Assembly: GCA_030141605.1 (NCBI GenBank)
Contig: JAQGDQ010000141.1
Span: 372,001 to 436,000 of the forward strand
Direction: 5' to 3'
Source of the DNA: Tubiluchus corallicola
Taxonomy: Eukaryota > Animalia > Priapulida
DNA: 64,000 bases
The translations under genes were made by a program, and so were the position numbers. The stretch's first letter is position 1. Each line of letters begins with the position of its first letter. This document shows positions 10,701 through 64,000 of the stretch, piece after piece. The notes below the pieces were generated by a model. The model made no database searches, was not told the origin of the DNA, and was given only the letters and a program-made list of their open reading frames with translations.

Positions 10701-13700
10701 ACTTACCAGCTTGAAAATGGCAACAAGTCTGTATCGCTGCCATCTGGACTGAGTGGACAAACTGACCCGATAGAAGGACAGAGTAGCACCGAGTCAGATG
10801 ACGCAGAGTTTAATGCAGGACATTTGTCTGGGAAAACATCCTGTAATAGTACGAGAAGTCGGCATAGTTCCCGGCAACATGGCGAGCTCACTGAAAGTGA
10901 TAAAAAGTCTGAGGCTTGTGCTCAAAGTCCCGTACTTGTGCAAAGAAGTGGTAGTGCTGCCACTGGTGGTGTAAAAGCGAAACATAAAGTTGAACCATGT
11001 GATCAGGCCAGTAGCACAGGGATTAGTTATAAACCAAAAATAGGAACGTTATCAAGTGTCAAGATTAAGCATTTCAGTCGAGATTGTGATACCAATATGT
11101 CTTCAAATGCAGATGATCTAGGTTATAGTGAATTTAGTGAATTTACTGACAATCCTGTGTCAACTTATTCTGACAGTACACTAGAGAATTCGTCTTCTGA
11201 CGAGGTGGGCAGTACGTTAGCAAAATCGTTTGTGAGAAACTCGGTTCGCAGTCGCAGCAACGTGATGAACAGCAGCCATTTGAAACTAGTGGGTCATCCA
11301 GCGAAACTGGATGCCAGAATTCGACTCGAACCTTTGGGAGGTATTACCAAAAAAGACAACGAGCATACTGCTGTGCCTGCCAGTGAGAAGACCAATAGTT
11401 TATCTTTACCGCCAACAGGTGGTGCTCAAGAAATAAAAAATATTTCTCGGACTTGTGCGGCTAGTACAGAGCGTCTTTCAGCTTCCGAATCCGATTCAAA
11501 ATCTTCCATTAGAAAGAAATTAGAACCTTGCAATAGTCTGACAACTAAAATTAGAAAAGATGCGAATTGCATAGGCAGTGCTCTAAATGTGAAAAACAAG
11601 GTGAACTTGGACAAGCGAAAGCAGACTAGTTTAGATAGCCTCATGTTTGCAACACAAGAGCATGATGCAAACGATGACATCATGAACAAGGCGTCGTCCT
11701 TGGATACGCTACAGAAGTCTGAAATATACACGTTGGGGAGCCTAGTGAGGACATCAGCTCAAGAGAACTTGAGCTCAAGTAAGTTTTTAATAACCTTTTA
11801 TGCCTTTGAATGAAACTGCGAGCATATTTAGAAGTATTTAGTAATGTTGTTAGTATCTGCTGGTTCCTACATCTTTCGCAGTTATGAGTGTCGTCGAACA
11901 TGTTTCAAAATTTGTACAAGATGACATTTGTGTTTTGACACTCTTAGCTTGAATGCTCAAATGACACTGTACATTTTTGTGCAAATCTTTTCTAGGTAAG
12001 TCCAAGCTGGTGGATTGTAATCATGCAGGAGCACTGTTAGGTATGTCTGGTAGTGGTAACCAGGGCAACAGTGGCCGCAGCTCACCATCGAGAGTGCCTA
12101 CACCATTACTGGTAAGTCATTTTTATTAATTATGCATTTTTTGCAGAATTTGAAGGTAGATAATTATAGGTTTGTATTATTTTTACTGTATTAACATGGT
12201 TATGCAACAGTTTTGCAATATTATTATTAGCATGCGTTATTTAAATTGCTAGTATCCATAACCCTAAAATTAAAATAATGTTACGATAATAAGGAATTAA
12301 AAGTGTTTTAAAGAAAAACTGACCCTTGAACAACAGTCATTGTATATATTTTAATATTGAAATTACCACATAAATGACTTACTGCACTTACACAAATTGC
12401 CTTGCTTAAACTTATCTCTCGCAAGATGAGCTTTATATTTGAAGAAATTGATGTAAGCTGGTTGACAACATGAAGGCAAGCATAGCAGACCTTTTGCAGT
12501 TCACTCAAAATTCTGCTTTTCCAGCTGACTAAATTTTTGGGTTTAATGTTTCATTTCTGGTTCAAGATTTAATTTTTCTGAGAAGAGTGTGTTAAAGTTA
12601 CACTTTGCAGTCGGCCTAGAAAGCAGTTAGAAAATATACTGACAATAATAACATTTACTGACACTGACCTTCACTACTGGTACCAGGATACCAATGAAAT
12701 GATCGTTTGCTGATGTGTTAGAAATGTGAAGTCATGTTTAGCATCAGTTTGACTGCTCTTTTAAGTGCCTCTTCATTCCGATGGCCGTGTGGAAGCAATG
12801 CAGGATTTTGATCTACCAATGGTGATTTTAACTCCTTCTGGACCGTAAGCTTTTGCTGCATTTTGCATGGGTTCGTGAAAAACTGCTCTCACTAAGCAGC
12901 GATTACTTTATATTTCATAATTTTTGTACGTTTCTACTCCTCCTCACACAATAGATTTTCATGGAAAATTATATATCACACACATTTGCTTACCTTAGAC
13001 AAATTAAAAATTGGTTCTTGATAAGAAAATTGAAAAAAGCTTTTAGTAACTACAATGTTTGCACTGTAACAATGTGCAGTATCACTTGTGTGAAATTGGC
13101 TAATGCAGGAAATTTCGACTATTCACACACAGCACTCAAGTCTTTGGCCTCAAGTCTACTGTATTTTTAAAGTAGAAATTCTTGTTAAAAGAAGAAACAA
13201 CCTTTAATGGTTTTCTTGCGCTGTAGCAAGCAGGCAATCAATAAAATAGTGTGTACGATCACGTAAGTGTACACCAGACTAAATTACTCAATAGGCTAAG
13301 TTGGAGTGCCTGAAAATGGCATGTTTTTATTAATTTTATCCAATTAAATCACTTATAATTATTTAAACAAATAACATGGTTGGATAGCCGAGATTCTCCT
13401 GAATAGAACAGTACCTGATTTGTAATCATCTAATTATGTCATACAGTAGCAGGAAAGTCACAGGTCTTATAAGACCTATTTTGAATAGTGTGTCCCTGAA
13501 GGAGTTAACTCTGGCATTTTATTCCATTATAGTCGTGATAATTGACGAACAGTGTCGCCTTTACACGCCGTATGTTGCAGGCTGCCGACAGTCCTTTTGA
13601 AATCGTATATGCTGCATTTTCTGCCCTGTATCAGAATTGTAATACCATAAACTCGGGTTATAATGATGTGTCAATCTTGCGAAATTCCCTGGAGATCCTC

Positions 13701-15113
13701 ATCCCCTCATCGTCTACAAGCTCGCTCTGCAAAGCTATCGTGTTCTCTGTTCTGCATAGTCGCAAGGCTATCTACAGGGGCCTGTATTCGAGCCTTAAAT
13801 ACTTTTGTATGATGCTTTCATTGTGTGCCTTATTACGTGCAACATGTTAAAATTTTACACTATACTGGCATCAAAATCATTGCTACCTGTATCATCCCAA
13901 CGACATGACCAACTGTCCCACTAGCCACTGTGTCTGGATGATCAGTAAAGTTTTCAAATCGGGTTTATCGGGTTCAGCATTCAAATGTTTTGTGGAACTT
14001 GAAACATTGGCGAATGATCAAAACAATAATGAAAATATGGTGTGCTACCAAGCATCAGAGTTGCCTTCCCTCACAAGAGATGGCAGACCCATGGACGGTC
14101 CACCCTGTTAATTTGTTTTAATCGTAAAATATAACCAACTTTATGCAATCCTAAAAGAATATTGACAGCGCTAAACCCAGACAGTAACCCCTATGAGATG
14201 CAAAGATAATCTTACATAATGCTTTTGCTTTTTTGCAGTCTGCTAGGCTACAGCAGAAATTAGCCTACTCTAGGGAACGTCTCATATCTCCATTACAGCA
14301 GCTACCTCCAGTGAAGAGCAAGAAGAGAGTGATCAAGCGATGCTATCAGTGTCATAGAAAAACGGGTCTGGCTACCAGCTACATATGCAGGTTTGTATCA
14401 AGAGAAAAATGTGGAAGCTGGGCTAAAGTCATTTGCTTAAAGGAAGACAGAATGATTTTTCGTATACTATCCCATTTTCAACTCTGATAAAAAGTATACA
14501 TTTAACATGATTAATACTGTAAAAGTATCTCTGATAATTAAATAATAGGTTTAAAACCTAATTAACGGCGGACATTTTCCTGGACCTAATTCACAATTTT
14601 TCCCAAATTTTGACCAAACATCGTGCAAAAAACGTTCTAGCAGTGCCTAGTGGGACTCTCGGAAAGTGATATATAGCTCTTTAGAGATGAGGAGGATACA
14701 CGGTGATGTAGGTACATTTTAGGACGCCTCCATCAAGAGCGGCTCGCGACGAGTTGATTAGCGGTTCCATTTTGGGTGATGCTTGCTTAGAAGGTCATAA
14801 GTATACTGATATGCAAAATTTTTGTGGGGCCTTTGCTAGTGCATGTATAATACCCTCGTTATAGTGGCCAAGCTCACTGTACGCCAACTGTTTTGGCAGT
14901 CCCAAAGTAGGCGGTAATAATTGGTAAAATGGCTATGGATGGATGTGAGCTATATTTGAATTGGAATCTTGTTTCAGATGTGGAAATAACTTTTGCACGA
15001 TGCACAGGTATGCGGAGTCACATGACTGCACGTTTGATTACAAAACTGAAGGACGCAGGTTCATTCATGCCGCCAACCCTGTGGTAGCTGCTCCAAAACT
15101 GCCTAAAATATAA
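1742..15113 (+). CDS. ZFAND4: AN1-type zinc finger protein 4 (N-terminal ubiquitin-like domain, C-terminal AN1 finger), about 773 aa. Exons 1742-1850, 5730-5873, 6330-6384, 6491-6625, 6857-7233, 10681-11778, 11996-12111, 14239-14390, 14978-15113
   Basis: Spliced translation begins [47 protein letters not shown]...[16 protein letters not shown] (Ubl domain, matches ZFAND4/ANUBL1) and ends [62 protein letters not shown] (AN1 finger). All introns are GT-AG with consistent phases; total 2322 nt. Confidence 0.93.
2990..3269. mobile_element. hAT-type MITE
   Basis: Termini TAGGGATGCACCGAA / TTCAGTGCGCCCATA; perfect 8-bp TSD TATGGTCT on both sides. Confidence 0.8.
8142..8654. mobile_element. hAT-type MITE
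   Basis: TIRs CAGGGCCGGCTCTA / TAGAGCTGGCACTG; degenerate 8-bp TSD CATATAAT / GTTATAAT. Confidence 0.7.
9455..9727. repeat. Minisatellite, 26-bp unit (CATGAGATTATTTCTRTGACAAAAAA), about 10 copies
   Basis: The unit recurs at 9467, 9493, 9519, 9545, 9571, 9597, 9623 and 9649, followed by shortened copies; no spacers. Confidence 0.95.
9918..10613. mobile_element. pogo/Tigger-like non-autonomous element
   Basis: Inverted termini AGTCCTCGCTTAACGA / TCGGTAAGCGAGGACTTGCTG followed by TA; a related right end lies at about 21695-21758. Confidence 0.6.
12832..13504. mobile_element. piggyBac-like MITE
   Basis: TTAA on both sides (12828-12831, 13505-13508); TIRs CTCCTTCTGGAC / GTCCCTGAAGGAG. Confidence 0.65.
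14437..14725. mobile_element. Dispersed repeat starting TTAAAGG (possibly Kolobok-like). Its first ~135 bp recur at 23448-23579, and 14632-14722 recurs inverted at about 20610-20710
   Basis: Direct comparison: TTAAAGGAAGACAGAATGATTTTTC...AATTAACGGCGG is present at both sites. Confidence 0.6.
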
Positions 15114-36519: not shown

Positions 36520-38744
36520 TTAGCACTGGCCAGAATCGGCAATTATTATCTTCTTGCTGGTTTTGCCACTCTGACTTCCGAAACTCTCCACATTCTTCAC
36601 TACATCCATACCCTCGACGACCTTGCCAAACACAACATGCTTGCCATCCAACCTTGGAAAAGAAAACGACAAAATCTTAAAGAGTCAGTCAGTGACGAAA
36701 AACTATTGAAAATCCATCACTCCGTCAATCTTTCAATAAAAAAACACAAAACTAGATACTATTTTAATATACAAACAGATTTCACAATGATAGCGGAAAC
36801 AGGAATGTTCCAGCGATGCTTAAATGCCTTCCCATTACAGGAAATCAGATATTCAATTACAACCACAACAATCACAGTCAATTGACAAGAGCTAATAATC
36901 TTCTTTTTAGTACTCAATGGTAGTGTTGTTCTGATTAACCGATTTCAGCAAAAGTCAGTCAACCATGACGTATGACTCAGTGCTCAATCATAAAGTTTAA
37001 TGACAAATGATAATTGCTTAATACCATAAGACTAACATTTTGCACACTTCACCAATCATATCAACCATTTAATTGCAATTCAAAAACTATCTTACTAAAA
37101 GGCAAAAAGAACTATCAATTAGAGCCAAAACAAAATAAGAGATAAAACAACAATCACAGACTTAATGTTCTAATTTCATACTGACGCAACCAAATGTTAC
37201 GATCGTTGCTGAAGGTTAATGACTGATCATAGAAATGCGACCAAATGCCAACACTGCTCAATTGCAGATCGTAATTAATGCAGATAGTTGCGGCAAGACG
37301 GAAATCCGGCTCAGATACGATTGAATATAAACATCCTTCCTCAACGATGTAAACAGCAAGAATCAGCACTTGAAATTAAAACCACATACAGCAAGTATGT
37401 AATCCAACGGTCACCTATCCACTCACTGACCAGCTTCAGTTGCTAAGTGCAAACTACGAAGCATTCGGTTATTTCCCTTGCGAAATACAATACCGAAAAA
37501 TTTGCAAAAAATGCAAATTAATAAACATTCAATAGCATGTTAGGAGCTGACCTAGCAAGAACAAGACCTATCAAATTAATAAGAATAACATTAATGCAAA
37601 AAGTCTAAAACTACGTACCATTCAGTTTTCACAGTGCACAGAAAGAACTGAGAGCCATTAGTATTTGGCCCTGCATTAGCCATGGACAAAATTCCTGTAA
37701 CAAATGTGAACATTTTCAACTGATTCACACAAAACACTACAAAGTAGTAAAATAGAAAAAAATTCAAATTAGAATGCAAATACAAAATGAAAAGCGTCGA
37801 AATGTCAGTACTTTGGCTCATAATACCAGCACAAACAACAAAAGTCATTTACCAGGTCCGGTGTGCTTCAGCTTGAAGTTTTCATCAGCAAACTTAGCTC
37901 CATAGATACTCTTTCCACCAGTTCCATTGTGATTGGTGAAGTCACCACCCTGGCACATGAAGTTGGGGATGACACGATGGAAGGTGCTGCCCTTGTAGCC
38001 AAATCCCTTCTCCCCAGTGCAAAGAGCACGAAAATTTTCTGTAGAACAAAAAAAGGAAAGAAGTATTTCACAAACATGTATATTGGATTGTCACAGAGTA
38101 CAGAGTTTGCACTACACATACTTGTAATTATCATACTTTGAAACATTCTAAGACAAATTACCTTTCTTTAACTAGAATACTTACATTGCCATGGGCTGTC
38201 TAGTTAAGATGATTATAATTTATTACCAATTATACTTTATAGTTAAAAGAAATAAAATTGCATTTCAGATGTAGTAAACAAAGTACCTGCAGTTTTTGGA
38301 ACAGTATCAGCAGCCAACTGCAAGAAAAAAATTATATTATGTTAGTACAATTTGCACACAAGAACGTTCATACATGCCAAGCTGCCAGGCACTCAACTTT
38401 CATTTGACCTTGACCGATATTGCATGATGTACATCAGCTGGGATAGCCGGGTTTTTAAATCAAATTGTTACAATACGAAGATACTGCATATAGACAACGA
38501 TAATGTTCCTTACTTTAATTAAAAACCTACACATTAATTAATGACAAAACCAAGCACATAAGCAATTACAAAGAAAAGCTAATATTCCATAAATGACTCT
38601 GATAAACCATTTCAGGTTTTACAAATTTGTAGCTTCAACAATGATGTTCAAATATAAAAAAAGTAATCATAGTACCTCCATTACAATACGACCGACTGGG
38701 CTGCCATCGGCTGTAATGTCAAAGAAGCACCTCGGGTTTGTCAT
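36520..38744 (-). CDS. PPIA: Peptidyl-prolyl cis-trans isomerase, cyclophilin A/F type, 164 aa. Exons 38744-38676, 38317-38287, 38038-37853, 37694-37619, 36652-36520
   Basis: Spliced translation [80 protein letters not shown]...[42 protein letters not shown]...IIIADSGQC*; 495 nt; minus-strand AATAAA about 50 nt after the stop. Confidence 0.96.
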
Positions 38745-38819
38745 GGTGCTCAGCAAACAACGAAAAGTCCTTAAAGAACCAATAACTGCAAAATTTAAAA
38801 GTCTTTTGCACAGGGCGGC

Positions 38820-38855
38820 AAGAGAAAGACGAACATGCCGGTAGACGCTTATATA
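38820..38855 (-). promoter_or_regulatory. Cyclophilin core promoter: TATA box (TATATAA, 38855-38849) and pyrimidine TCT/5'TOP-like initiator (TCTTTCTCTT, 38829-38820)
   Basis: Minus strand reads ACCTATATAAGCGTCTACCGGCATGTTCGTCTTTCTCTTGCC. The TATA-to-C spacing of about 27 nt is canonical. Confidence 0.7.
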
Positions 38856-39067
38856 GGTTACGGACTATTTTTCATGACACTTATTTTTGCGATCAATTAA
38901 TGCAGCGTAGAAATAAGAAAATCTGGGCTGTATTGCTAAATATGACAATAATACCATGTCTTTTTTAGACATTGATTTTCTTATTTTACGTAGTATCTAC
39001 GTTATTGTCGTTTAAAGTAGTTGTTCTTTTATTCAGCGGCGGCTTACATGCGTTAAAGATTCAACGT

Positions 39068-39198
39068 AAGATGGCAACACCGTCAACAGGCCAAGGAAAC
39101 GAAAAACGTGTGATGTAAGCAAAGTACAGTAGTTTTTTAACCTTTCCTTGATGGAAGTAGGAAAGTCGTTACAATCATCCTCTGTATATTATTTTCAG
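39068..39198 (+). other. Probable first exon of GTF2H5 (ending 39114) and an 84-nt 5' leader intron (39115-39198)
   Basis: AAGATGGC (YY1-like motif common near start sites) at 39068, donor GAT|GTAAGC, acceptor ATTTTCAG at 39198. Confidence 0.6.
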
Positions 39199-39248: not shown

Positions 39249-42200
39249 ATGGTCAATGTAATGAAAGGAATCCTAGTGGAATGGTAACGCTTACTTTTGG
39301 CTTATTTATTGATGGTAGCTTATGTTATGGTTTAATCACGCGATGACTACTGAACTGAATTGAATTTGAATTATTGAACTTAGAGTTATTACTAAAGACA
39401 AAAACGTTCATGGTGGCCATGTAACTCGCGAAGAAGTCTAGAGAAACAGCCAGTTGACTGTAGACTTACAGTACACTATCGTCATTCAAAATCTTGATTG
39501 TATTTACCAAACAATTTGTATTTTTGTCCTATTCTGAAGAAGACGCAGACGATAGATCAAGATACGAAGGCAATACTTCTGAATTGCTTAGAGGTGTTCA
39601 ATGTTTACATAAGTAATATACTGTGGTGACCACGTGGCAGCTGCATATTCCAACAACGGCCAGCCCAAAGTTTCGCACAAATGACAAATGAATCTCTGCT
39701 GATTACTGTTTTCTTTACTTTATAGTACATATATTTGCTTTCTTTTCTAGCTCAATAATATAATCACAAAATTTCATGTTATTTGAAACCTCACAATCAC
39801 TCGAAGACTTTTCAATCTGGAAACTTCACGAACTAGACTATCATTGATTGAATAATTATAACTGACATGATCTTTCGGGTGCAGGACACTTTCAAAGAAG
39901 CCATTGCTCAGACCATATTTATTTCGACAGAATCAAGGTCAAGGTGGAGCCACTGTACAGCCAAACTCAATCATGATTTTTTTTAAATTATTTATTATCA
40001 TCCACAAACATTCTTATATTAGATTAAACAGTGTCAATGTTCTACTTTTGATGGTTAAATGTGCCCGAAAGTCCCAAGTTAGACTTTAGTAGCTTTATTG
40101 GGTTTTATCTGAAAACAAATGATGTAATTAATAAGTAAATTTGGCAAGTTTAATGTAAGATTTTATAACTAATTGCATAACGTGTATCTGAAAAATTGCA
40201 CAACATTGTAACTTACATGATAATATTTTGTAAAAATAAGAAAACTTACATTTGGCATCTCTTAGCCCTCTTGATAGAAAAAAGTATTATTATAGTGCAA
40301 AGTTGCTTAGCATAATGTATAGCAGTACTCAAAGTTTTTTTTCTTATTTTGTTGCAGCGATCCTGCTATGAAGCAGTTCTTGTTGAACTTAGATGAAAAT
40401 AACACTTTCGGAAAAAAATTTGTTCTGCACGATCTAGATGAGACACATATATTTATCATTCCTGAAATACTGGAAATTTTGCAGGTAGGTCCATATTAAA
40501 AGCCAAAAACACGAACTTATGGACTGGGTACTAAATTAAAAGCCAAGCTGGCCATGTGTTAGTGTTAGAAATTCAATGTACAATACACATCGTTACAACG
40601 AAATAGGCAGCTATAGAATTATCAGGTCTGTCTATTCGTCTGCCTGTCTGTCACCACTTTTTCTCGGCAGTGGAGTAAAGTGTGATGCTGGGACTTGGCA
40701 TGCTGGTAGGGTATTGGCCTATTAATTTTTGGATGAATTGGCGCAGTTTCGAATTTTTTACAGTTTTTTGAAGACTCGCGTATAACACCTGTGATAGCTG
40801 GACAACCACAATCAGTAACATGTTCTTATCTGTTTTTTTTCTATTATAGTGTTATTTTAAGTTCAAGTTATAATCCATGTGAATTTGCATTTTTAGTTAT
40901 AATGTTAAAATGTGTTGTTAGTTATAATAAGCTTTGAGTGTTTTTGTTTCCGGTCTAACTTGATATACATTATAATTGTAATACGTTACTCTGTAGTATT
41001 ATTATAACAGCTGTACATAGATTTTACGTAATTTTATGGTGCTAGTTACAAATTGTGCCAGTGCATAAAATACATTTTTGCAGTAGTCGTCATGTATATC
41101 AATCTCATCAGGGCAACTGCACCACTCTACTGAGGGCTCTCTAGTTAGCAGCATTCAGAAATTCGGAACTCAACTCTTATTTCTTACCACTTGCTTTATT
41201 TGATTGCCCCATACAAGCCAACTGGCAACTGCCAAAGATTTTAATGAGGTTATTTAAACAGGTTCTTGGTGTACAGAATTTCAATAATGCTTTAAATAAT
41301 ACTAAGACCATGATGGTAAAGTTTCAGCATTTATTGCACAGTGCACAGGTATATGCAGTCATACAGCAACTAAATTTCGGCAGAGCTCTTCTCTGTGCAC
41401 TGTGCAATAAATGCTGAAACTTTGCCACCATGATCTTAGTATTATTTAAAGCACTATTGAATGTTATTTACCTGAAATAGACCATCAATAGAATTTATTG
41501 GCATAACGTGATTTCATTTAAGGTGCATCAGCTTTTGTAGGTTTCTATAATGGTTTAAGTAGGTGCCCAAGTACCAAGTTATTGCTATAAGCAGTTAGAA
41601 TGGTAGTGCTTTAAAAAGCGCCATCCATCTTATTTGTCTGGTTTTCAAGTACTTTCACAAAATTCAGAGGATCTGTGACAGCCCAAAATTTCGAGACACT
41701 GGGAGATCAAATCACTCAGGAAAGCTATAAATCTCATGTTTACTCAGAGTAAATATACTGTACGCAATATACAATCCCTAATTCCTCCACATTTTAGTTG
41801 TGTATCCTTTTAGAAGTTGTAACCACTAACTATGCATTTAATCAGTTTTTAATAATATTAACGCCTTTTTAACAGATTTTTACAGCAAGTGCTTAATGTT
41901 GTAATAATTATACGATCCTGTCAAGTGTTGAAAGTTCAAAAATTTTAATAATATTAAATAATTTAGGCTGACTGCTGCAATAATGATGCCTTTTATTTTT
42001 TCATGTAACCATTTTATAAAGCACTTGTTTACTCATTGAACTTTTATACAGTATTGATATTAATGATGTGGCCTAGATTAGTAGCTGCTTCATATTTCTA
42101 AACAATTACATCTATCAGTCTCTAAAATTTATATGTATTAGTTCTGGCACGTAATTTGATGGACGACTGCAGACGAACTTGTGTTTGCCTAATCAGTGTA

Positions 42201-43060
42201 TTTCTAGTAAAAATGTTGTTGGATGACGATTTTCCAAGCCCAACCATGTTCTACTTCACTAAATCTTTTCCCAGTGGGGGAGTTTTGATCTTAATAAGAG
42301 TAACCTAATTTTTGTTGCTGTCAGCTGAAAAGACGATTCCTTATCTTCATTGCTGCTTGGCTTATAATTAGTGCTGCTTGGCTGAATTACAGTAATTTGA
42401 GGGTCTGCGCTTATTTTGAATTTTTAAGCCCTGGATTTAAAGCACAAGAAAACACTCTTCACAAATAAAGCTTAAAAATTTGTCTTGAAATTTTATATCA
42501 CTTACGTGTTGTCTTACCACAAACAGAGCTTGTGTTTATAGTAACGCTGTATAAAACTTGTAAATTTATAGCGCAGTCATTTTAGCAATAAATCGTTTGA
42601 AACATGTTTAGATGACATTGCATAAAGTTTGAAAAAAATAATCAGATTTATAGTAGTGCACACTTCACTAACTAAGCAAAAGCTTAATTTATTTTATATT
42701 GTCAATAAGATCAATTGAGTGTTTTTTTGGTGTTCTATTCAAAGGTGCACTGCACACTACAATGGTGATGCAAACCGTTTTACCAGGTGGCGCGAATATT
42801 TTAAATTATTAGGAATTTTCTTTTCTAGTTAAATAAATCTTTCAAGCAGGTAAATGTAATGCTAAATAATATAACTTTATATTTAACATTTTTTGTTGCA
42901 TACTTTAAAAATGCCTTTTCTTCCCCTTTAACACATTTACAAGTATGTTCATAAACGTAACATTGCTTCCATGTTGAACCTGTTTTCTTTTACTCTACAG
43001 GAAAAGATAGACGACTTGATGGATCGTTTACACTTTCCAATGCAGGAGAAGCCACAGTAA
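39249..43060 (+). CDS. GTF2H5: General transcription factor IIH subunit 5 (TFB5/p8/TTDA), 73 aa. Exons 39249-39283, 40358-40484, 43001-43060
   Basis: Spliced translation [73 protein letters not shown], colinear with human p8 ([25 protein letters not shown]...). Absent from the ORF track because the exons are short. Confidence 0.95.
41280..41461. repeat. Long inverted repeat: 69-bp arms (41280-41348, 41393-41461) with a 44-nt loop
   Basis: The arms are reverse complements with 4 substitutions. Confidence 0.9.
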
Positions 43061-43081
43061 AAAACGGTTACAGACTGTATC

Positions 43082-43786
43082 ATGTCACAGCGGATGATGA
43101 CAATTTTTCTCAGACGAAGTCGCCTTCATCGTTTCGACCTAGCCACCACGAGTCACCTTTTAAACAAAATCATGCCCTGTGCAGTTGGCATGACTCAGCT
43201 ATTGGACCATTTACCTTCGCTTGTCATAGACCAGCGGGCTGGAATTCTGGGGTTTACACGACCGCGGTTACCATTTGCGCCATCTGGCAACAAGAAAAAA
43301 GAATATTCTGAGCGGCGCATTCTAGGGTACTCGATGGAGCAGATGTACAATGTGGTCGCCAAAGTCGAACATTACCCCATATTTGTCCCTTGGTGCATAA
43401 ACAGCAAGGTATTTAACAGAAGGACAGGACATTTCAACTGCATGCTTGAAATAGGGTTTCCGCCATTAGTCGAGCGCTATAACTCTGTTGTTACCATAGC
43501 CAAGCCTCACCTTGTGAAATCTGTATGCACAGATGGACTCTTGTTTAATCACTTGGTGACAATATGGCGCTTCAGTCCTGGGCTTCCGGACAATTCGCAA
43601 ACGTGTACGCTGGATTTTTCTGTTTCGTTTGAGTTTAGATCTGCACTGCATTCGCAGCTTTCCACTCTTTTCTTTGACGAGGTGGTACGGCAGATGGTAA
43701 AAGCATTTTTGAAGCGAGCGAAAGTCTTATATGGGGAAGGATCTGTAAAGCATTCTCCTGCCCAGATTACAGTGTACAGGTCATGA
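43082..43786 (+). CDS. COQ10: Coenzyme Q-binding protein COQ10, mitochondrial (START/polyketide cyclase fold), 234 aa, intronless
   Basis: Uninterrupted ORF containing [68 protein letters not shown] and [39 protein letters not shown], typical of COQ10A/B. Arg/Ser/Leu-rich N-terminus resembles a presequence. Confidence 0.95.
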
Positions 43787-51100: not shown

Positions 51101-54100
51101 CAGGTTCTAGTTTGGCCATGACCACTTGAATTGAACAAACCGTGACATTGAATGCAAGAACCTACCTACTGTGCACTGAATTACATTAAAAAAGAAAAAA
51201 GTTTATTTTTAGCCTAACAATAACAAAATAAAATCTAGACAATATCACATCAAAATGGCAAAATAGCCAAATTCTTCAGAGCAGAAAATAGCACGAAATA
51301 TGCACCAATATAGTACAACCGTTAATTTGTGATAACTGCTTTCAAATTACTGTGGATGCAGCAGTCCGTTGAAATGATATCTTAAAAGAACATAACAATT
51401 CACACCGCTCATCATCCATTTCTAAACTGCTTTCGCTCTCTGATAGGTGGCGACACAAGGCCTCTCGGCGGTCCATTTCCAGCTGTAGCTTTCTCTGTAG
51501 CCTGATGTTTTCCTCGCGAATGTGTCGTTCTTCTTGAGCATAGTGTGCCATCTTGTTTGAATCTGAAAAAGTTTTGACAAAATTGTATTGTATTGTATTG
51601 TATTATTATACAACCAGTTTTTTAACAAGTTATGAAAACAATGTCATGTGACGGAAAATAGATCTGCTATTGCGTAACAGAAAAGGACAATAGTACAGGG
51701 GTGTATCAAGACTTTACGATGCCCCAGGCTGAGAGTTTTGTCCTGCCCATCTCTATTGTGGATTTATGGTTGTTATGTACTCAGCAGATTAAATACTTAC
51801 TTGTGGTGTATTAGAAACACTATTAACCTAATTTCTATGTGGTCATTATAAATTACATGTATTTACATAGTGCTTATGTTTAAGCAAGCTGCGCAACTGT
51901 TTGTTGTATAATACCTTGCACCTGTTCGTTATGTGGTACTTATATAAAAGCTGAGCACAGTAACTGCCTGTAGTATGTTATGAAATGCGTCCTTCACATA
52001 AACTTGAAAGCATACACATTTTCCGAGGAGAATAAGAATTTTTTCTAAAATGTGGCGGCCCTCAAACTTTGGCGCCCTAGGCTATAGTCTAGTTAGCCTA
52101 TTGGTTAATACGCCCTTGCTCACTTCTTTTACGGGCAAATCAGCAACAGCCGGAAACGGGTTTTGACGATACAAGTCAAAACAGTGACGAGAAAAGACTA
52201 CCGGGTGAACGAACCTCACTTTAATACCACTTTTGGCACCATGATTGTTTATAACAGAACAGTAGCTCACTATAAAATTGATTAAAGTTTAAGGAAGGAA
52301 GCACAGAGTCGTGCTATTACTAGCTACTCACATTTGGAAATAGATTAGACTTATAAGTACATTAGACTTACAAGAAAAAAATCAGTCATCTTTAAATGGT
52401 TCTTGGTGGCATTATGATTATCAAGGCTGCTGCAAAGTTTTTTCTTGAATTTGTTGCCAACATATTTGCCTGTATTGTTAAATGTTAATTGATTTTGTAA
52501 CAGTGCTGGTGCCTTTAACATATGGTTAATACATTATACGCATGATCGATTTTGCATAAGACTTCAATTACTTGAATTGTCAGTGTGTGAACAAAATAAA
52601 AACCAAGTCTGTGTGTCACTTGATAATTTTAAAAAAGAAACAGTAGTACGAAGAACAATGAATAGTCCACAATCAAACAATCACAAACACCTTCGCTCTT
52701 CCAAGATGCTAAATGATAAACAATAAATGGTGTGTATCATTGTAAACTCACGTTCAGCCTGTGTGTTCTCCAGCAACTTTCTTAGCCGTAAAATTTCACT
52801 CTTTAAGTGTGTAATGTGGGAAGCAAGGTTTCCAGCAGTATCATCACCCAATATATCCATGGGTGATGGAGGGGTTGATACGGGTTGATCTAGCTTTTCT
52901 TGTAACATTCTGAAAAAAAGTTAACAATGCACTACTGTTATTTCTCAATGACTTCAAGAAGGAGCTAATTAGAGATAATTTCCAAATCAATTTAGTTTGA
53001 TTTTTCAGAAGTAATAACAGGTACGACCGGGTGTGCTATGTTATGTGCAGAACTTGGAGAATAACTCATATCTTTGGCAACCCAGTTAAGAGAAAGTAAA
53101 ATTATGCCAGTAAAAATACGAAGCAGTTTAGCAAATGCTACCTGAAAGACACACAATGGAAAGTACAGAGGAAAAAGAAGGACGGTGATTCCCGTGAATT
53201 ACACGATTACCAAAATCCCAACACATGTCAATCGTACAGTCAGTGTTGCAGTTAAAAAGTAGGAATTGAAAAGTGAAAATAGAATTATAGAAATTAAACA
53301 GAAACTGCTACGAGATGACTGCATGATAAACTGACACTTTCATGTGCTTGTAATCAATAGGCCTATAAAGATATATTAATATTATTTTTCTAATGATCAA
53401 CTAATGACGACCTGTTTTATGTAAAGCCAAGCCACCAAAAACTAAATTCTGCAAACGAACAATATATAAAGGCAGTGTTTCTTAGGACTCTTATAGTCGT
53501 ACACTGCCCTCACACATTTTCTTCTATAAAAATAGTTTCATTAATGGCTACTTTGTATTCTATTGCATGTTTTGAAATAAATACGTTTTATATCTCAATT
53601 CTTATTGTAATCAATGAATTTTGGTTGAAAGCTACAACTTGGACTAAGTAACATACACTATTGACTCGTCGAATATTAGCTTTTGCGTATGTCTGGAATG
53701 GTGTTCGAGTATAAAAGAAACATATCATGTCATTGTCTACACCAACAATAAATACACCAATAGATGCTCTTTTATTTATAAGCTTTTGTTTACACAATCT
53801 TTAACACATTGCATGTCGCTGGTTACATTACTGCTTAAAAGAGTGAAAACAGTGTTGCCTAGTGGCAGCTCGTGTATAGGTACTGTGGAGCAGCAGCACC
53901 TCCAATATTATATTCACTCAATATTATAGATAATATTCACTTAGTAAGTCTTTTTCTTTAGTTCTTTTTTATACTTGTATGGTCCAGAGCGCGTGGGCGT
54001 AGCAATGTTTGCTTCATAACCCAACACAGTGTGCTCAAGCAACATGGCGTTTGACAGTTGTGCACATGTGCACATGTCTGAGATAATACGCTGCACTTTA

Positions 54101-57100
54101 GGTAGAAAGAGCACTGTCGCTAATGCAGTGTGTGTTGTAAGTTGTTCCATATTTAAAAGCCGTGTATCGACATATTTTTGAACTGCGAACAATTTAGGCT
54201 ATTCTTAAACAAACAATATTTTTTGTTAAGTTTATGTATCAAATTCCATACGTTTGTTTGTTTAAAATTACAATTACAAATTGCAACATTAAAATTACAT
54301 AATGTTTGTTTTGTTTTACACAATATTAAAACAATAACTAAAATTTTTTTGAAGCAGCACCCCCAGTAATTTTAGCTACAAACTGCCACTGGTGTTGCCA
54401 CGACGAGTTATTCCTGAATGTCTTAAGCTCACAATATAGCACAACAGCAAAAGGAGTTAAGTGATATTAACTGTCTAGGTGTTCAGTGATTTGATACAAA
54501 CAGCATGGTATGAAACAAATTAGCATTTTGTGCTCGTACCATATGTGCTTGAAAATTGTAGTGAATATTCTGGTTACTACTTCACTTTTCATACTTAATC
54601 CTTAAAACACAATAAAAATTAGAACGTCCAAATGCTTCATTCATTTTGATGACAAAACTACCTTTTTATTTTTAAGCTGCATGTCCGTTCTATAGGTTTT
54701 ACATGTCAAATGTAGACCTACATTAACTCAAATATAGATTTACGTAATTCAAATGTGTTAACAATGGTCTTCAACAAATCTTAAGCGTTTTTTGGTATGT
54801 CAAATGTAGACACATGTCAAGTGAAATGTGACATTGGTATCTCAAATGTGGATAGGTGTTAAAGCTTGAGGATGTTAAATTTAATCTTCTTTAATTTCAA
54901 TGTAATAATTGCTCTTAAGACTGTGAAAATAATAACTTTGTAAGCAAATAATGACAAATAAAATGTAGAATTGGTGTATTAATAATTGTACAGTTGTTAA
55001 CTTATTCATGTACAACACTTTTAGGTGTTCTTGTCAAATAAACATTTTCTTTACATTTGAAAAATGTATTAACGTACAATCAAATAGTTGCAAATTAATT
55101 ACATATAATAAAAATTGATGCTGCCGATAGCACCATGACCATAAAATATAATTTTAATTAGGTTTTTCTTTTTGTAATTTGCACTTAAATGAGTTAATTG
55201 CAGATTTATTCAAAGTACCGCATCTGTATTTGACTTACCCAAGTCATATTTGAGTTAACAAAACACATTCGAAATTGCTATGTCTACATTTGACTTACCT
55301 AAGTCACTTTTGAGTTAGCAAAATACATGTGAAATTCTTATATCCACATTCGACTTACCTATGTCACATTTAAACTTTCCTGTGTCTACATATGACGTGT
55401 AAAACCTATACATACTAACTAATAACAATGTACATTAAATATTTCATGAAAAACATTATTAACAGTATAGCCTTTTGAAATAAAATAAACACTTAAGCTT
55501 TTATCACCTTTTCTCGGCCTCTAGTTTATCCATTCGTTTCCACAAGCGATTAACCAATGCTTCTTGTTCCTGTTCCAGGGTATTTTCCAATTCTATCTTT
55601 TCCCGTCGTAACTTGAAAATGCAAAATTTACAATTTAGTTCCTCGAAATTTCAACATTTATTTTAAAGTTCAAAATACCTCAATAATTTAAATTGTAAAG
55701 AAATATTTTAACAGCGATGAGCATTAAATAATAAACCTTACTGTTTATATAAAAGAACAGTTAGTATTAAGATGAATTTCTTGCAGAAAGAGGTGATGCT
55801 GAAAAACTGTGCATACATCAGGACTTGAAGGCAAGACCAGTGGATTGCTGCTATTCGCTCTAACCATCTGAACTATGAACCAGTGGCGGCTCGTGTATCG
55901 GTACTGTGGAACTGCTGCACCCCCTATTTTCACTCAATATTATCGATAATATTCGACATAATAAGCCTTTTTTCTTTAGTTCTTTCTTTATATTTGTACT
56001 GAACCAAAGCACGTGAGGGTAGTACTGTTTGCTTCACAGCCCAGCACACTGGTGTGTTTGGCTGTTGTACACATGCGGCCATGCGCACATGTCTGTGATA
56101 ACATGCTATACCCTGCACTGCTAGTGTCTGCTGCTAGGTAGAGAAAGTACCGTCGCTCACACAGTTTGTCGTGAGTTTTGCTTAAAAACCATGTACGGGC
56201 ATATTCGTGAACTGCAGCAATTTAGGATATTCAAAAGCAAAAAAAATTTCGTTTAGGATTTTATCGAGTTTACGTATAAATTTTTGCATGTTTGTTTGTC
56301 TAAATTACAAATTACAACATTAAAATTACATAATGTTAGTTTTGTTTTACACAGCATTAGAACAATGGCTAGAAATTTTCAGAAGCACAACCACTACTAA
56401 TTTTAATTACGAGCCGCCACTGCTGTGAACCCACGTGGAGAAAAAAGGCATAAATTATCATTCCTACAGCAGACACAATCAAACAGCAGTACCTACTAAA
56501 AAAGAACTAAAGAACAGTTAGCCGTATGACAAATTTATTATAGAATGACGTGATGCTGAAAAGATGATTCAAATGGGCACATGGCTCAGACGGTTAGAGC
56601 AAGTGGGCACAGCCTACTGGTCTCGGGTTCAATTCCAGGATTAGTCACAATTTCTCAACTACACCTCTTCGTGCGACCAATTGTTCTTTGATACAAATCA
56701 TAAAGTTTATTAATTCTAGGCAATATTTGAGCAAGTTAACTGCAAGATTATTTTTTTAAATGTTAAAACATCTTTACAAGAAGCAATAAAAAACTCAGGG
56801 CCAAAAATTGCAAGTTACCGCAAAAACTGCAAATTGCTGGTAACTAATTATCTAGCAAAAACCTAAATAAAAAAATTTAAATTTTTCGCCGAGTCGCACA
56901 CAGGAAACAAGGCACATAATATAATCACACTAATAGTACAGACCTGTTCTAAATTGCTCTGTTTAGAAAGAATGTCCGTTTCAAGTTTTTCGATCTTCCT
57001 CATTAGTTTGTTGACTTGAAACTCTTGCTCCCTTTCCAGAGTTTCTTCTAACTCCACTTTTTCCTGACGTAACTGAACAAAAGAGACAAGACTTATACGG

Positions 57101-60100
57101 GTGGTATAGCTTAACGGTATGTGCTTGCTTCCCGCCCAGAAGATTGCGGATTCAACTCCCAACTGAGCCATACCAAAGATTTAAAAAATGGTTCACTGAA
57201 GTAACATGGGGGTAATAATGATAAGAAGTCCGCGACTATGTACTAAACGAATTTATTATTGTTATCATTAATAGCCTAGAGTGGAACATTTAACAATCTT
57301 GCCAGACACTTTTTCTATCAAGTTACGTAAATCATTGTGATCCTCAGCAATGGGAGTAATGCATTACAAATGAATTATTATTTTGTAAATCTATTTTCAA
57401 TTCCACACTTAAAATCGTGGAACTGTAACTGTAAGTTTGTAATAAGTTACAGTTTTCAGAAGTTAACTTGTAAATGTAACTAGCTCTTTTTTGTTGTAAC
57501 TTGTAATAGAAATAACAGTTACTTTTACATTTGTCTAGAATGCACACAAGTGCACATAGAAACTCAAATTCTGATGTTAAAATGTAATTAGATCAAATCA
57601 TATAACTAATAAATATGCCTCCTGTGCAAGAATACGTGTTCTCGTAAAGTTATTTACCTGATTTAGTTTCCTGGAAAGATCATTTGTCAAAAATTCTTCT
57701 TCCTGTTCATAATTCATTGCCAGGGTTTCCTTCTCTTTCTTCAGTGCCTCTATTTTCTTAAGTAGTGTGTTACTAATATACTCTTCCTCCTGTTCTGCTT
57801 TAGCTTGCTGAAAAATAAAATCACACATGTAATAAAAACCATAAGCTAGCTACGTCTAAAAATTTAAATTCGAAGCTTACTGTTGTTTCATCGTGCGTCT
57901 TCATCACAAATGTGGTAAGCCAGAAATTAACTGAGTGGTACATCGGCGCCCTATTTTCTGTGTAATGTGGTTTTAAGATACAGCCATTATATCCATGTAA
58001 CACATGTAACAGGGTGCGATGCGAATGTGAAATGTTAAATTTTAGATTATTTTCAGCTACAGTTTACATAGAGTCCTGTTTCCTTTTAAAACTCCAACAT
58101 CAGTGGAATACAATTTTTCAATGTTTTTTGTGCTCTATATTTGATTGAAGTTAAGGGTCTCCACATTAAATGCAACATATCTCACTGGATTGTATTACCA
58201 TATTAGCTCCATTGTCAACTGCTTAGCCGCACTTCATTTTTGTGTTAAAATGAAGCTTGCACTAACTAGGCAATAGCTCGCTGGGCTTAACATCTTTGTC
58301 TGCAAAAGGGCAACCTGCCTAAATGTGAATCATTTAATATCTAATCATATGTATTTCTGCATGTGCAAAAAAGAAAGAAAAAAGCTTTTAATTAGCACCA
58401 CTTAAATGCACAGAAAAAGTGCGACTACATTCACTAAAATCATCATCAAGAAGGTGAACAGGCAGTCATGGACTCACAACCACAATTGATTCCAGCTGAT
58501 TGGTCGTAAGCGACAGCTGATTGATGTTGCGTAGTGCAACTAGCGTGGTGAAAAAATGCCCGGCTTTCAAAGTTTACCAGCTCAAAAAAGTTGTAATGTC
58601 GAATGCTTCTGTGCAGCAGACACAGATGTTGCAGACAAAATGTGTTGCTTGTGAGGCGATATTCTGGCAGTGGCCACTCCACTAAGGTCGTTAGTGATTC
58701 AAAGGTACGAATATGAATTCATGTCTTTAAAAAAAGTCTTCCATGGTGTATGCAAAACCTACAAGATACTTCTTCAGTGAAATTGTGAGGGCTTTGTGCT
58801 AATTAATGTTGAAGTCCATCTGCCACTTTTCTGTACATCCTTCTGGATACTGAAATTTTTTGATGGGTAACAAATAATAAAGTCATCTGTAATAATCGAA
58901 TATTTGAAAAGATTTCATCGTAACGATATTTATGAAAGGAAGAAAAAATGCTGGTCCTAAGACAGAGCCTAAGACGCCCTACTTCCTTGCATACTCATGA
59001 GGTCACATGAATAAATACGGAATGCAATTAACTGATAACAGCACTGAGATAGGAATGAAGCAATCCTATAATAACATATTATCACTGAAGCCACTTAAGC
59101 TTGACAAGCAGCAGATGATGAGCTAACCAGTTGAAGACCAAGGAGCACAATGCCCATTTGGCAAACTCTACCTCTGTGTTTGCCCTTTAAGGCAATGGAC
59201 CAGTTCATGGATAGCTTCTATCAGTTGTGTAAAATAAAAAACGAATTGCAAAAAACTGTCGACAAACAAACCTAGAACACAAGCTTGTCCAAACTTAAGC
59301 CCAAGTTAGCACCTCCACTGATTACATTGCCATTTAGATGAAGTTGGTGATAATCAATAGGTAAAACTTTATAAAAGTCTATTTCATTTTCATTGTTGGA
59401 ACCAGGTAAAAATATTAGGCTCGGGAAATAAACAATGCAGGTAATTACTTGGGTACATGGGTAACAGATGTAAACACTACTGTAAACATCAGCAAAAATG
59501 CTTTTAACACTACGAAAGGCAAAGACATTACAAAATTAACTTTAATAAGCCATATGGCATTGTATACACTATAACTTTTTGAGAGGAGGAGGACAAATTA
59601 GGAGCATTGGCCATCTCCAGTGTCACAAAACTTTGAGGTTCACCAGGCAAATCCATGTACTACAGTTATGTGGTGAATTGCTTAGCAGCCCACACTTAAA
59701 AGAAACAATAGTATTAGTAGGCAATGAAATGGATTACCCACCTGTATACTTCATTAAGAAACCACGCAAAATAAAAAAAAACATACCTTAACAAAAAGTT
59801 ATAATTGTCTAAAAAGAAGGCCTACAGAAAAGATTAGCTCTCAAAAACCAAATTTAACAAAGCTCTTCCTGTTCAGAATGAATAATATTTTATTTTATGA
59901 AATGTATAATCAATATTTAATTTGAAGTTTTTTTAAAGTTTTTGTCTGAAGTTTTAATTATTATCACATTCAGTACAATATAGTGACATGTAACTATTTA
60001 AATTATTTATATTTGATATTTTAATATCACGGAAGCGTTATATGAGCTGGACAACCTGCTACACTGTATGGATATCGGACTAGTGCTACCAACAGACAAT

Positions 60101-60452
60101 TTATGAAACGTGTGGTATTGCACAAAACCTCTAGATTTATAATGCCCATAGACTAACACTAATTCATGTCCACTGAATAAATACTTAAAATTTAAAAAAA
60201 CTAACTTGAATTTTCTAATATAAATATTGTCAAACGTTAACATACGATTGTCACACTAGCTTTGCGCAATGCTCGATTTTCCTCCATTAGAGACTTGCAT
60301 CTCAATTTGTATGTTTCAAGTTCCATTTTCAAAACTCTCTTCTCCTGCTCAAGGGATTCAATACGTTTAAATAATTGTTCTTTAGAAGCAGGAGACGGCA
60401 TTTTTAAGCCATCTATTGAACTAGAATCACTTTCGCTCGCCGAGTCAGCCAT
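48130..60452 (-). CDS. CCDC6: Coiled-coil domain-containing protein 6, about 411 aa. Exons 60452-60246, 57807-57658, 57072-56944, 55611-55508, 52909-52752, 51562-51406, 50659-50553, 49168-49023, 48207-48130
   Basis: MADSASESD start, then [122 protein letters not shown] and [14 protein letters not shown] introns with consistent phases; 1236 nt. Confidence 0.94.
51696..52118. mobile_element. hAT-type MITE, family B copy 2
   Basis: Termini CAGGGGTGTATCAA / TTAATACGCCCTTG; colinear with the reverse complement of 29795-30216; no clear TSD. Confidence 0.8.
53860..54391. mobile_element. hAT-type MITE, family A copy 3
   Basis: TIRs TAGTGGCAGCTCGT / ACAAACTGCCACTG; perfect 8-bp TSD GTGTTGCC. Confidence 0.85.
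54691..55410. mobile_element. MITE with ~27-bp TIRs and TCAAATGTAGAC subterminal repeats
   Basis: TATAGGTTTTACATGTCAAATGTAGAC / GTCTACATATGACGTGTAAAACCTATA. Confidence 0.75.
55881..56422. mobile_element. hAT-type MITE, family A copy 4
   Basis: Perfect 14-bp TIRs CAGTGGCGGCTCGT / ACGAGCCGCCACTG; TSD CTATGAAC / CTGTGAAC. Confidence 0.88.
56575..56646 (+). mobile_element. tRNA-derived SINE head (degenerate)
   Basis: A box TGGCTCAGACGG and B box GGTTCAATTCC at tRNA spacing; no valid cloverleaf. Confidence 0.55.
57098..57272 (+). mobile_element. tRNA-derived SINE with a central-domain fragment and ATT-rich tail
   Basis: A box TAGCTTAACGG and B-box-like GATTCAACTCC, then CATACCAAAGATTTAAAAAATGGT (resembles the Meta/MESC SINE core as I recall it), then an ATTATTGTTATCATT tail. 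Confidence 0.6.
58450..59230 (-). mobile_element. Highly degenerate LINE reverse transcriptase remnant
   Basis: Minus-strand fragments [18 protein letters not shown]-(F)TDD (FADD-like) and KWQMDFNI, with stops and frameshifts. Boundaries are approximate. Confidence 0.65.
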
Positions 60453-62819: not shown

Positions 62820-64000
62820 CCCTGTTCATCTCAAAGGTTTTATGTTCAACTGCAATGGCTGTGTTAATAGACTTAGTGATTTCTTCAATTTCATTAATAA
62901 TTATAAACATGAATTTTTATGCTTATGTGAAACCCAGTTTTCTGAAGATAGATGATAGTGTAATTTGTCCTCAGCATTACTCAATTTTTAGTGCTAATCT
63001 CTGTGTCAGTCACAGCCGAAACTGTTGCTGTTGAACTCAAAACTTCTTCACAAGATAGTCTTAGTGTTGCTTGCATATATAGATCTTGCAATAATAACTG
63101 TACTCATACATTTGGTTATTTTGAAATCAATATACTTGAAGAAATTAAATATGCTATTTCTATCTACTATCAAAATGATGTTATCATTTGCGATGATTTT
63201 AATTTTCCAAAATTAGTGTGGCCTGACCCTGTTCCTCTTAATGATTTTGAGTGTATGTTTATTAATTCTTTACATGATAACCTGCTTGCTCAGTTATTTC
63301 ATTTTCCTACTTGCAAAAACAGTTGCCTAGAATTAGTCTTTACTAACTGTCTTGAATGCATTACGAATTGTTCTCCTTGGCATGGATTTTCAACTATTGA
63401 TCATGACACTAGCATTTGTTTTGATATTGAGTACAAATACCAAAAACTTGTAACTAAACCCTGGCGTGACTTTAATCGTTCTAAATTAATTTTGTTATTA
63501 GTTTTTTTTTTGAAAATATTGACTGGAAAGCTCACTTTCACAATTCTGACATTATTACTTGTTGGAATTACTTTTTGTCTGCATATAGTGAAGCAGTTAA
63601 CCAATTTGTACCCTTAAGAGGAACGTCTGCTTAACAGCGTAAGCTTATATCTTTCCCTTGGCTAAATAATCCCATTGTTACTAAAGCAAGAACTCGCAAA
63701 TGCAAATTATAGTTAAAATGGAACTATTCTAATCTTAACAAGGTTCATGCTGAATATACTCCTGACAGGAATTGAAATCAGCTTTATGTTCTGCTCGCTT
63801 GCAATATGAGGAACGTCTTGCATATTGACTAAGCAAGAGTTTTACTGTTATAGTAAGCATTTCCTTAAACCTCCTAATTATATTACTATTATTAATGATC
63901 ATCAACATGTTATTTCAGATCCTATCACAGTTGCTAATACTATTAATGATTCTTTTGCTTTTTTCTTCACTAATGAACCTGATGATGGTCCCTTACCAAC
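62820..64000 (+). mobile_element. Degenerate LINE (CR1/L2/Jockey-group) ORF2: APE endonuclease and downstream linker, running off the window
   Basis: FNCNG...LCLCET, IYRS, IICDDFNFPKLVW (GDFN motif), PTCKNSCLELVFTN (PTR..LDL), DH, later PWLNN and IANTINDSF..FF; frameshifts and stops. Confidence 0.85.

Follow-up and report, generated by a model that had tools for sequence, protein, structure and literature searches.

Can one cyclophilin gene serve both the cytosol and the mitochondrion by means of a CUG start codon hidden in its 5′ leader? The question is raised by a stretch of 64,000 nucleotides from the priapulid Tubiluchus corallicola (hereafter the window; positions are counted from its first letter), whose minus strand carries a five-exon cyclophilin gene with a leader that stays open, in the frame of the AUG, from a CUG onwards. 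The gene structure, the CUG, the open frame and the make-up of the encoded peptide are features of the DNA itself. The further reading, in which the candidate CUG start lets one gene supply a cytosolic and a minor mitochondrial cyclophilin, is judged somewhat likelier to be true than false on the sequence at hand; it is partly supported, in that the anatomy of the leader, the predicted transcription start, the chance tests and the homologues fit it, and nothing contradicts it outright.

Gene Structure and Protein Core

The five coding exons (Table 1) encode a cyclophilin of 164 amino acids, and a form started at the CUG would have 187. The exons are joined by a contig from a related species (X2, probably RNA), which ends at 38732, inside the coding region, in a loose end that we take to be sequencing adapter. 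The 76-nt exon presumably agrees with the exon plan of vertebrate PPIF. With its PF00160 domain and about 164 residues, the protein belongs to the single-domain CypA/CypD type, and at most 145 of its 164 residues are identical to any retrieved protein. A profile that includes a Conus scaffold scores higher for CypD than for CypA chains (about 320 versus 306 bits), and exon 5 alone reaches 62 bits against CypD and 54 bits against CypA chains in the PDB. In a tree of 45 rows, the gene fell in none of the starred sets, and the bootstrap did not settle its placement.

Table 1. Features of the cyclophilin gene, its leader and its promoter region in the window
Feature	Position	Strand	Basis and remarks
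TATA box (TATATAAG)	38848..38855	-	TATAWAWR match at 38855; putative function
TCT-like initiator / 5′ oligopyrimidine tract	38820..38829	-	Predicted +1 is C 38828, 27 nt from TATA box
CpG-richer short region, likely bidirectional promoter with divergent plus-strand gene	38830..39070	.	Sequence
First in-frame stop upstream, TAG	38865..38867	-	Rules out unspliced upstream AUG start; identical in X1
Out-of-frame ATG	38834..38836	-	Short frame overlapping CUG, terminating in TAA
GCCGCC context, G at -3, before CUG	38814..38819	-	Sequence read
In-frame CUG, candidate start	38811..38813	-	Sequence read; putative use; 15 nt from predicted cap; +4 is U
23-codon extension, predicted mitochondrial presequence	38745..38813	-	4 basic, 0 acidic; hydrophobic moment 0.57 over 11 residues
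Candidate cryptic splice acceptor AG, phase 1	38786..38787	-	No matching upstream AUG exon found within 39400-38800
R-T-F and R-C-L, predicted processing site	38754..38771	-	Arg at -9 and -6 from AUG; motif of AUG-started homologues
Coding exon 1, 69 nt, from AUG (AGCACC ATG A)	38676..38744	-	Joined to downstream exons in X2
Exon 2, 31 nt	38287..38317	-	Letters found between joined sides in X2
Exon 3, 186 nt, PF00160	37853..38038	-	X2 join, domain match
Exon 4, 76 nt	37619..37694	-	X2 join
Exon 5 to stop, 133 nt, PF00160	36520..36652	-	X2 join, domain match; PDB comparison nearer CypD than CypA

Predicted Transcription Start and Promoter

Whether the CUG lies within the mRNA depends on the transcription start, which an initial annotation of this DNA had placed near 38828. 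Judged against the general consensus of TCT-type initiators, this position holds up as the predicted site, since a TCT-like initiator lies 27 nt on from the TATA match at 38855; in the whole window, this combination at such a spacing is seen at one of the 59 TATA matches. A start at 38828 would keep the CUG inside the mRNA with 15 nt left before it, and the out-of-frame ATG at 38836, which lies 8 nt upstream of the predicted start and goes unmentioned in the initial annotation, would fall outside. The divergent TFB5 gene, followed by COQ10, has its start on the other strand, upstream by a few hundred bases, and the shortness of the shared promoter region leaves scant room for an upstream exon with an AUG.

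Further upstream, at 38865-38972 (-), an ATG-started frame of 35 codons shares the reading frame of the cyclophilin and is separated from the gene by the single stop at 38867. This frame contains acidic residues, lies upstream of the TATA box and is probably due to chance; its in-frame ATG near 38972 was rejected as a start of the cyclophilin, being cut off by the TAG and upstream of the TATA box.

The CUG and Its Context

The minus-strand letters given for the leader in the initial annotation were correct in every particular. The CTG at 38813-38811 is in frame with the ATG at 38744, has GCCGCC directly ahead of it and a T at +4, and is separated from the ATG by neither a stop nor another ATG, as in a near-cognate start defined by an in-frame upstream codon with an uninterrupted path to the AUG. 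Direct translation from the CUG yields LCKRLLNFAVIGSLRTFRCLLST, whose 23 residues include four Lys/Arg, no Asp/Glu, six Leu, three Arg and two Ser, matching the composition claimed. As for context, the purine at -3 is present (G) and the G at +4 is absent (U); this U and the leader of about 15 nt before the CUG had both been entered as caveats, and both agree with the reread sequence. The claim of a textbook Kozak context stands as far as the presence of GCCGCC goes; this consensus is a vertebrate one, whereas the context of the other inferred starts in the window is A-rich. GCCGCC is counted 14 times in the window and comes up again in the same promoter region, at 39043, and its place before the CUG may partly reflect the CpG richness of the promoter.

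Two contigs of a DNA run (X1, possibly the window's own source) cover 38689-38948 without a single difference, which makes an assembly error unlikely. An apparent branch at 38820 in X1 proved to be an adapter-like end and no allele.

That CUG is the most efficient near-cognate start, as the initial annotation had stated, is generally so according to the accessible part of PMC5666671, where efficiency depends on the -3 and +4 positions and downstream hairpins promote non-AUG starts. No stable hairpin was found after the CUG of the cyclophilin leader, where 40-nt windows reach -1.7 to -8.3 kcal/mol, and the leader folds no better than its shuffles (z -0.35).

Character of the Predicted Presequence

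By simple features, the extension resembles a mitochondrial presequence, being net positive and free of acidic residues, with a hydrophobic moment of 0.57 and an Arg near the predicted cleavage site. R-x-F/L/Y is a motif of the processing peptidase, and the Arg that had been placed near a plausible cleavage site is indeed found there, in R-x-F and R-x-L at -9 and -6 from the AUG. The exact Arg motif at -6 is carried by 900 of the 86,432 hexapeptides in the window (1.0%). The composition score of the extension is 0.089, where 21 Met-started homologues span -0.06 to 0.27, and this score is reached by 7.6% of 4,074 background stretches. The joint occurrence of no acidic residue, at least four basic residues and R-x-F/L/Y is seen in 58 of the same 4,074 stretches. 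The hydrophobic moment is attained by 776 of 4,483 open shuffles.

Chance Expectation for Such a Leader

How often a leader of this kind would arise by accident was estimated from 11,967 ATG-free dinucleotide shuffles of the 84-nt leader and from 3,399 ATG-free 84-mers of the window, with criteria that were all chosen after the sequence had been seen. Taken singly, the features are ordinary: the frame is open across the leader in 27% of the shuffles, and 12% of them have an in-frame CUG 15 or more codons upstream, a share that drops to 3.6% once a purine at -3 is required. Their combination is rare, with a CUG, a purine at -3, no acidic residue, at least four basic residues and at least two Arg coinciding in 0.09% of the shuffles and 0.12% of the window 84-mers. 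When any of CTG, GTG, ACG or TTG with a purine at -3 and a presequence-like make-up is admitted, the rates rise to 0.45% and 0.53%, respectively; when GCCRCC is demanded ahead of such a CUG, they fall to zero at four decimals in the shuffles and 0.03% in the window. Leaders of this kind are bound to turn up when many windows are scanned.

Homologues with N-Terminal Extensions

A second Met is kept behind an extension of 15 or more residues in 34 of the 285 proteins compared, and among these 34, 21 begin with Met not followed by Gly. Set aside from the 21 were eight rows starting with MG, which are likely artefacts of cDNA adapters, and five records beginning with L, V or K, in which a real start and a contig edge are indistinguishable. 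The Met-started extensions are 21-103 residues long, and the 23 residues of the present gene are fewer than in 20 of the 21. R-x-F/L/Y lies within the last 10 residues of the extension in 15 of the 21 and is lacking in six, many of the rows being close relatives; the Arg motif sits at exactly -6, as it does in this gene, in four.

Eight homologues that combine an extension with a kept second Met are known by name, and every one of them begins with Met. They come from seven insects, of which five are beetles, one is a caddisfly and one a fly, and from a chytrid, the insect proteins being of the Cyp1 type (Carabus P0066, Abscondita P0056, Pyrocoelia P0084, Oryctes P0094, Agrilus P0104, Arctopsyche P0117 and Musca P0217) and the chytrid protein being P0185. 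Like the leader studied here, they have a basic, acid-poor extension adjoining the second Met and mostly ending in R-x-F/L/Y, whereas theirs is Met-started and 38-66 residues long and that of the present gene has 23 residues and no AUG. Judged from sequence, these insect and chytrid extensions would target mitochondria, and the existence of AUG-started extensions in homologues raises the prior for reading the leader as a presequence. The initial annotation had also suggested that the gene preserves a state from before the duplication of the cyclophilins; this is plausible for the single-gene design and fails for the CUG, given the Met starts of all eight.

Several other records touch on the same subject. 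A springtail-like protein (P0076, sister to Allacma with support 98/82) has a Met-less 22-residue extension ending in R-N-F-A-T-K, which a contig edge could have cut. Together with P0187/P0273 and P0276, it makes three cyclophilins in which an initial L or V stands exactly 22 residues ahead of the Met and the extension is free of acidic residues; such beginnings may be near-cognate starts or contig edges. At 1457-1571 of locus L016, a cyclophilin gene of a eukaryote, interrupted by introns, shows a leader of 21 residues that resembles a presequence, starts at an AUG and lacks a second Met. Its style is similar, with C-x-R-L near the start and R-C-Y near the end, and the gene is a candidate for a dedicated mitochondrial paralogue from a different organism. 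Upstream of 745 in locus L015, a fungal-like cyclophilin has two in-frame ATGs 31 codons apart.

An orthologous leader from the lineage of this gene was found in none of the searches, which covered proteins, metagenome loci, prokaryote and viral contigs, and the runs X1 and X2. A protein search with the leader and exon 1 left none of 29 candidates with a score, and the best score for the extension and exon 1 in the Atlas search was 0.81, with no lead. Neither exon 3 nor alignment A3, used as queries, brought up a close relative, the best match being identical at 145 of 164 positions, and the diagnostic words of the gene were carried by none of the 285 proteins. A metagenome scan returned 18 loci, most of which read as bacterial and none of which has this leader. 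The pattern of exon 1 and its donor matched 53 stretches in prokaryote genomes and one in viral contigs, and none of the 54 reads as a cyclophilin.

Proposed Mechanism

In the mechanism proposed here, transcription would begin near 38828, 15 nt ahead of the CUG, on a TOP-like pyrimidine run. The G at -3 would permit weak initiation at the CUG despite the U at +4, the short leader and the lack of a strong hairpin, and the weakness of this initiation would make the long form the minor one. A small share of ribosomes would start at the CUG and produce the 187-aa precursor, whose basic, acid-free extension would direct it into mitochondria, and most would scan on to the AUG, which has an A at -3, and produce the 164-aa cytosolic enzyme. 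Amphipathic in character, the 23 residues would serve as a presequence with its cleavage site near R-T-F or R-C-L; the matrix enzyme that remains after cleavage would exceed the cytosolic form by a few residues, and the long form would take the role of cyclophilin D. A bolder claim, that the CUG-started presequence is the source of cyclophilin D in this lineage and perhaps in others whose annotated cyclophilins lack a presequence, is rather doubtful and is put forward tentatively; the Met-less extension of the springtail-like P0076 is noted in this connection. Were the claim true, annotation-based statements that an invertebrate has no mitochondrial cyclophilin would have to be revisited, and the stringency of start-codon choice on a TOP-like mRNA would govern how much of the enzyme reaches mitochondria.

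Alternative Explanations

Another explanation takes the mRNA for a TOP-like housekeeping transcript whose U-rich 5′ untranslated region is of the usual kind; the CUG, the frame and the look of a presequence would then have arisen by chance, and a mitochondrial cyclophilin would be encoded elsewhere or be absent. We hold this explanation to be unlikely and yet by no means far-fetched. It draws on the commonness of the single features (open frame 27%, CUG 12%, composition 7.6%), on the 14 copies of GCCGCC in the window and the recurrence of this motif in the promoter region, on the lack of a helper hairpin, on the dedicated mitochondrial paralogues that, to judge by L016, exist in other organisms, and on the reported absence of a mitochondrial cyclophilin from Drosophila, as given in the accessible part of PMC6262314. 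However, the features coincide at a rate of only 0.1-0.5%, and they do so in the same family and at the same position where homologues have AUG-started extensions with the same end motif. If the leader were instead a relic, in which the AUG of an ancestral presequence changed to CUG fairly recently and the extension is now unused, the open frame, the context and the motif would be explained equally well, and the Met starts of the eight named homologues would fit; but an unused leader should gain stops or indels, none of which is present in the window or in X1 (a single species), and we consider such a relic improbable.

Two further explanations involve a different mRNA. The presequence could be real and start from an AUG on a rarer, longer, spliced transcript that begins upstream of the TATA box, running from a donor at 38861, after an ATG at 38875, to the AG at 38803 or 38770, or from some other upstream exon to 38786. 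The ATG at 38875 is indeed followed by a phase-2 GTAACC donor, the phase-2 AGs at 38803 and 38770 keep the frame open, and yeast CCA1 is dually targeted through alternative transcription starts, as described in the accessible text of PMC12718117. Against this stand the weakness of the acceptors, introns of 59-92 nt, the crowding of the region by the divergent gene and, for 38786, the finding of no AUG exon of fitting phase within 39400-38800; this route appears slightly less probable than the relic. Finally, the mature mRNA could lack the CUG, either because transcription starts downstream or because the AG at 38786 accepts a spliced leader, leaving a cytosolic protein alone. The letters at this site, TTTTGCAG, are similar to the gene's own acceptors, and trans-splicing is possible in this organism, but the TATA box and the TCT-like initiator indicate a start at 38828, and we regard a mature mRNA of this kind as very improbable.

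Relation to Known Systems

The cyclophilin of Neurospora crassa reportedly uses AUG starts on alternative transcripts. The earlier statement that this species makes its cytosolic and mitochondrial cyclophilins from one gene is found in print, in the title of Tropschug et al. (1988, PMID 2971658). The priapulid gene would resemble it in serving two compartments from one gene, whereas Neurospora is a fungus and its gene does not use a CUG start. A single gene for two compartments is already known, and the CUG start alone would be new.

Non-AUG N-terminal extensions that yield mitochondrial isoforms are described as widespread in yeast in the accessible text of Monteuuis et al. (2019, PMC6582344), of which the main text, to the extent accessible, names neither cyclophilin nor CPR1 or CPR3. 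For yeast Gpx3/Hyr1, an upstream near-cognate start is reported to add a mitochondrial address (PMC5368413, accessible part). The candidate cyclophilin start would likewise add a mitochondrial address through a near-cognate codon, whereas the yeast cases are proven by experiment and the present one is read from letters. In vertebrates, PPIA (CypA) and PPIF (CypD) have the same PF00160 domain, the core of the present protein scoring higher against CypD; unlike in the single-gene arrangement proposed here, each of the two has a gene of its own, and the presequence of PPIF starts at an AUG and is cleaved, the cleavage being described in the accessible portion of PMC6316178. Dual targeting of TRNT1/CCA1 is achieved by leaky scanning, alternative transcription starts or paralogues in different species (Ly et al. 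2025, PMC12718117, where the accessible main text names neither cyclophilin nor PPIA). The likeness lies in one need being met variously across species, whereas TRNT1 relies on AUG starts.

The mitochondrial permeability transition has its threshold set by cyclophilin D, whose presence in invertebrates is debated. In Drosophila work by von Stockum, 5′ RACE is said to have missed the Cyp1 presequence. The literature on a mitochondrial cyclophilin in this fly is split, in that a review states that Drosophila appears to lack one (PMC6262314, accessible part) and the available text of a preprint reports that Cyp1 knockdown inhibits the permeability transition (10.1101/2025.10.08.681163). FlyBase lists 27 genes with non-AUG starts, 11 of them with CUG, according to the accessible part of PMC4528330; Cyp1 is unnamed in the main text there, and its Table S3 may bear on the point. 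No CUG-started cyclophilin in animals was found in the open-access literature, including the accessible parts of PMC2790464, PMC9787756, PMC11011324 and PMC6316178.

If the preferred reading, with the CUG in use, is true, the gene would be the first animal CUG-started cyclophilin that can be found in open-access text. Its long form would be invisible to AUG-based annotation, and the portion of the enzyme in mitochondria would respond to the stringency of initiation. As both ingredients, one gene for two compartments and non-AUG mitochondrial extensions, are known separately, such a design would be neat and not startling.

Neighbouring Genes

The divergent TFB5/GTF2H5 gene has exons at 39249-39283, 40358-40484 and 43001-43060 (+) and matches the Tfb5 family of Pfam. 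An intronless COQ10 frame (ATG 43082) begins 21 nt after its end, the pair occupying 39249-43786 (+) of the window; no promoter or intron is evident between the two, and judging by this arrangement they are likely carried on one bicistronic mRNA. TFB5 is known as an upstream frame in Drosophila (PMC2276209, accessible part), and its pairing with COQ10 was not found in a literature search. A candidate first exon of the TFB5-COQ10 unit at 39071-39116 (+), with an AAG ATG G start and a GTAAGC donor, would put a short upstream frame ahead of TFB5.

Two other genes of the window, at 6831-14487 (+) and 51342-60452 (-), presumably correspond to an AN1-type zinc-finger protein and CCDC6. A long exon at 10674-11813 has a single relative, with 41-45% identity. 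At 62964-63617 (+), a frame of 217 codons resembles what we take to be the endonuclease region of a decayed non-LTR retrotransposon.
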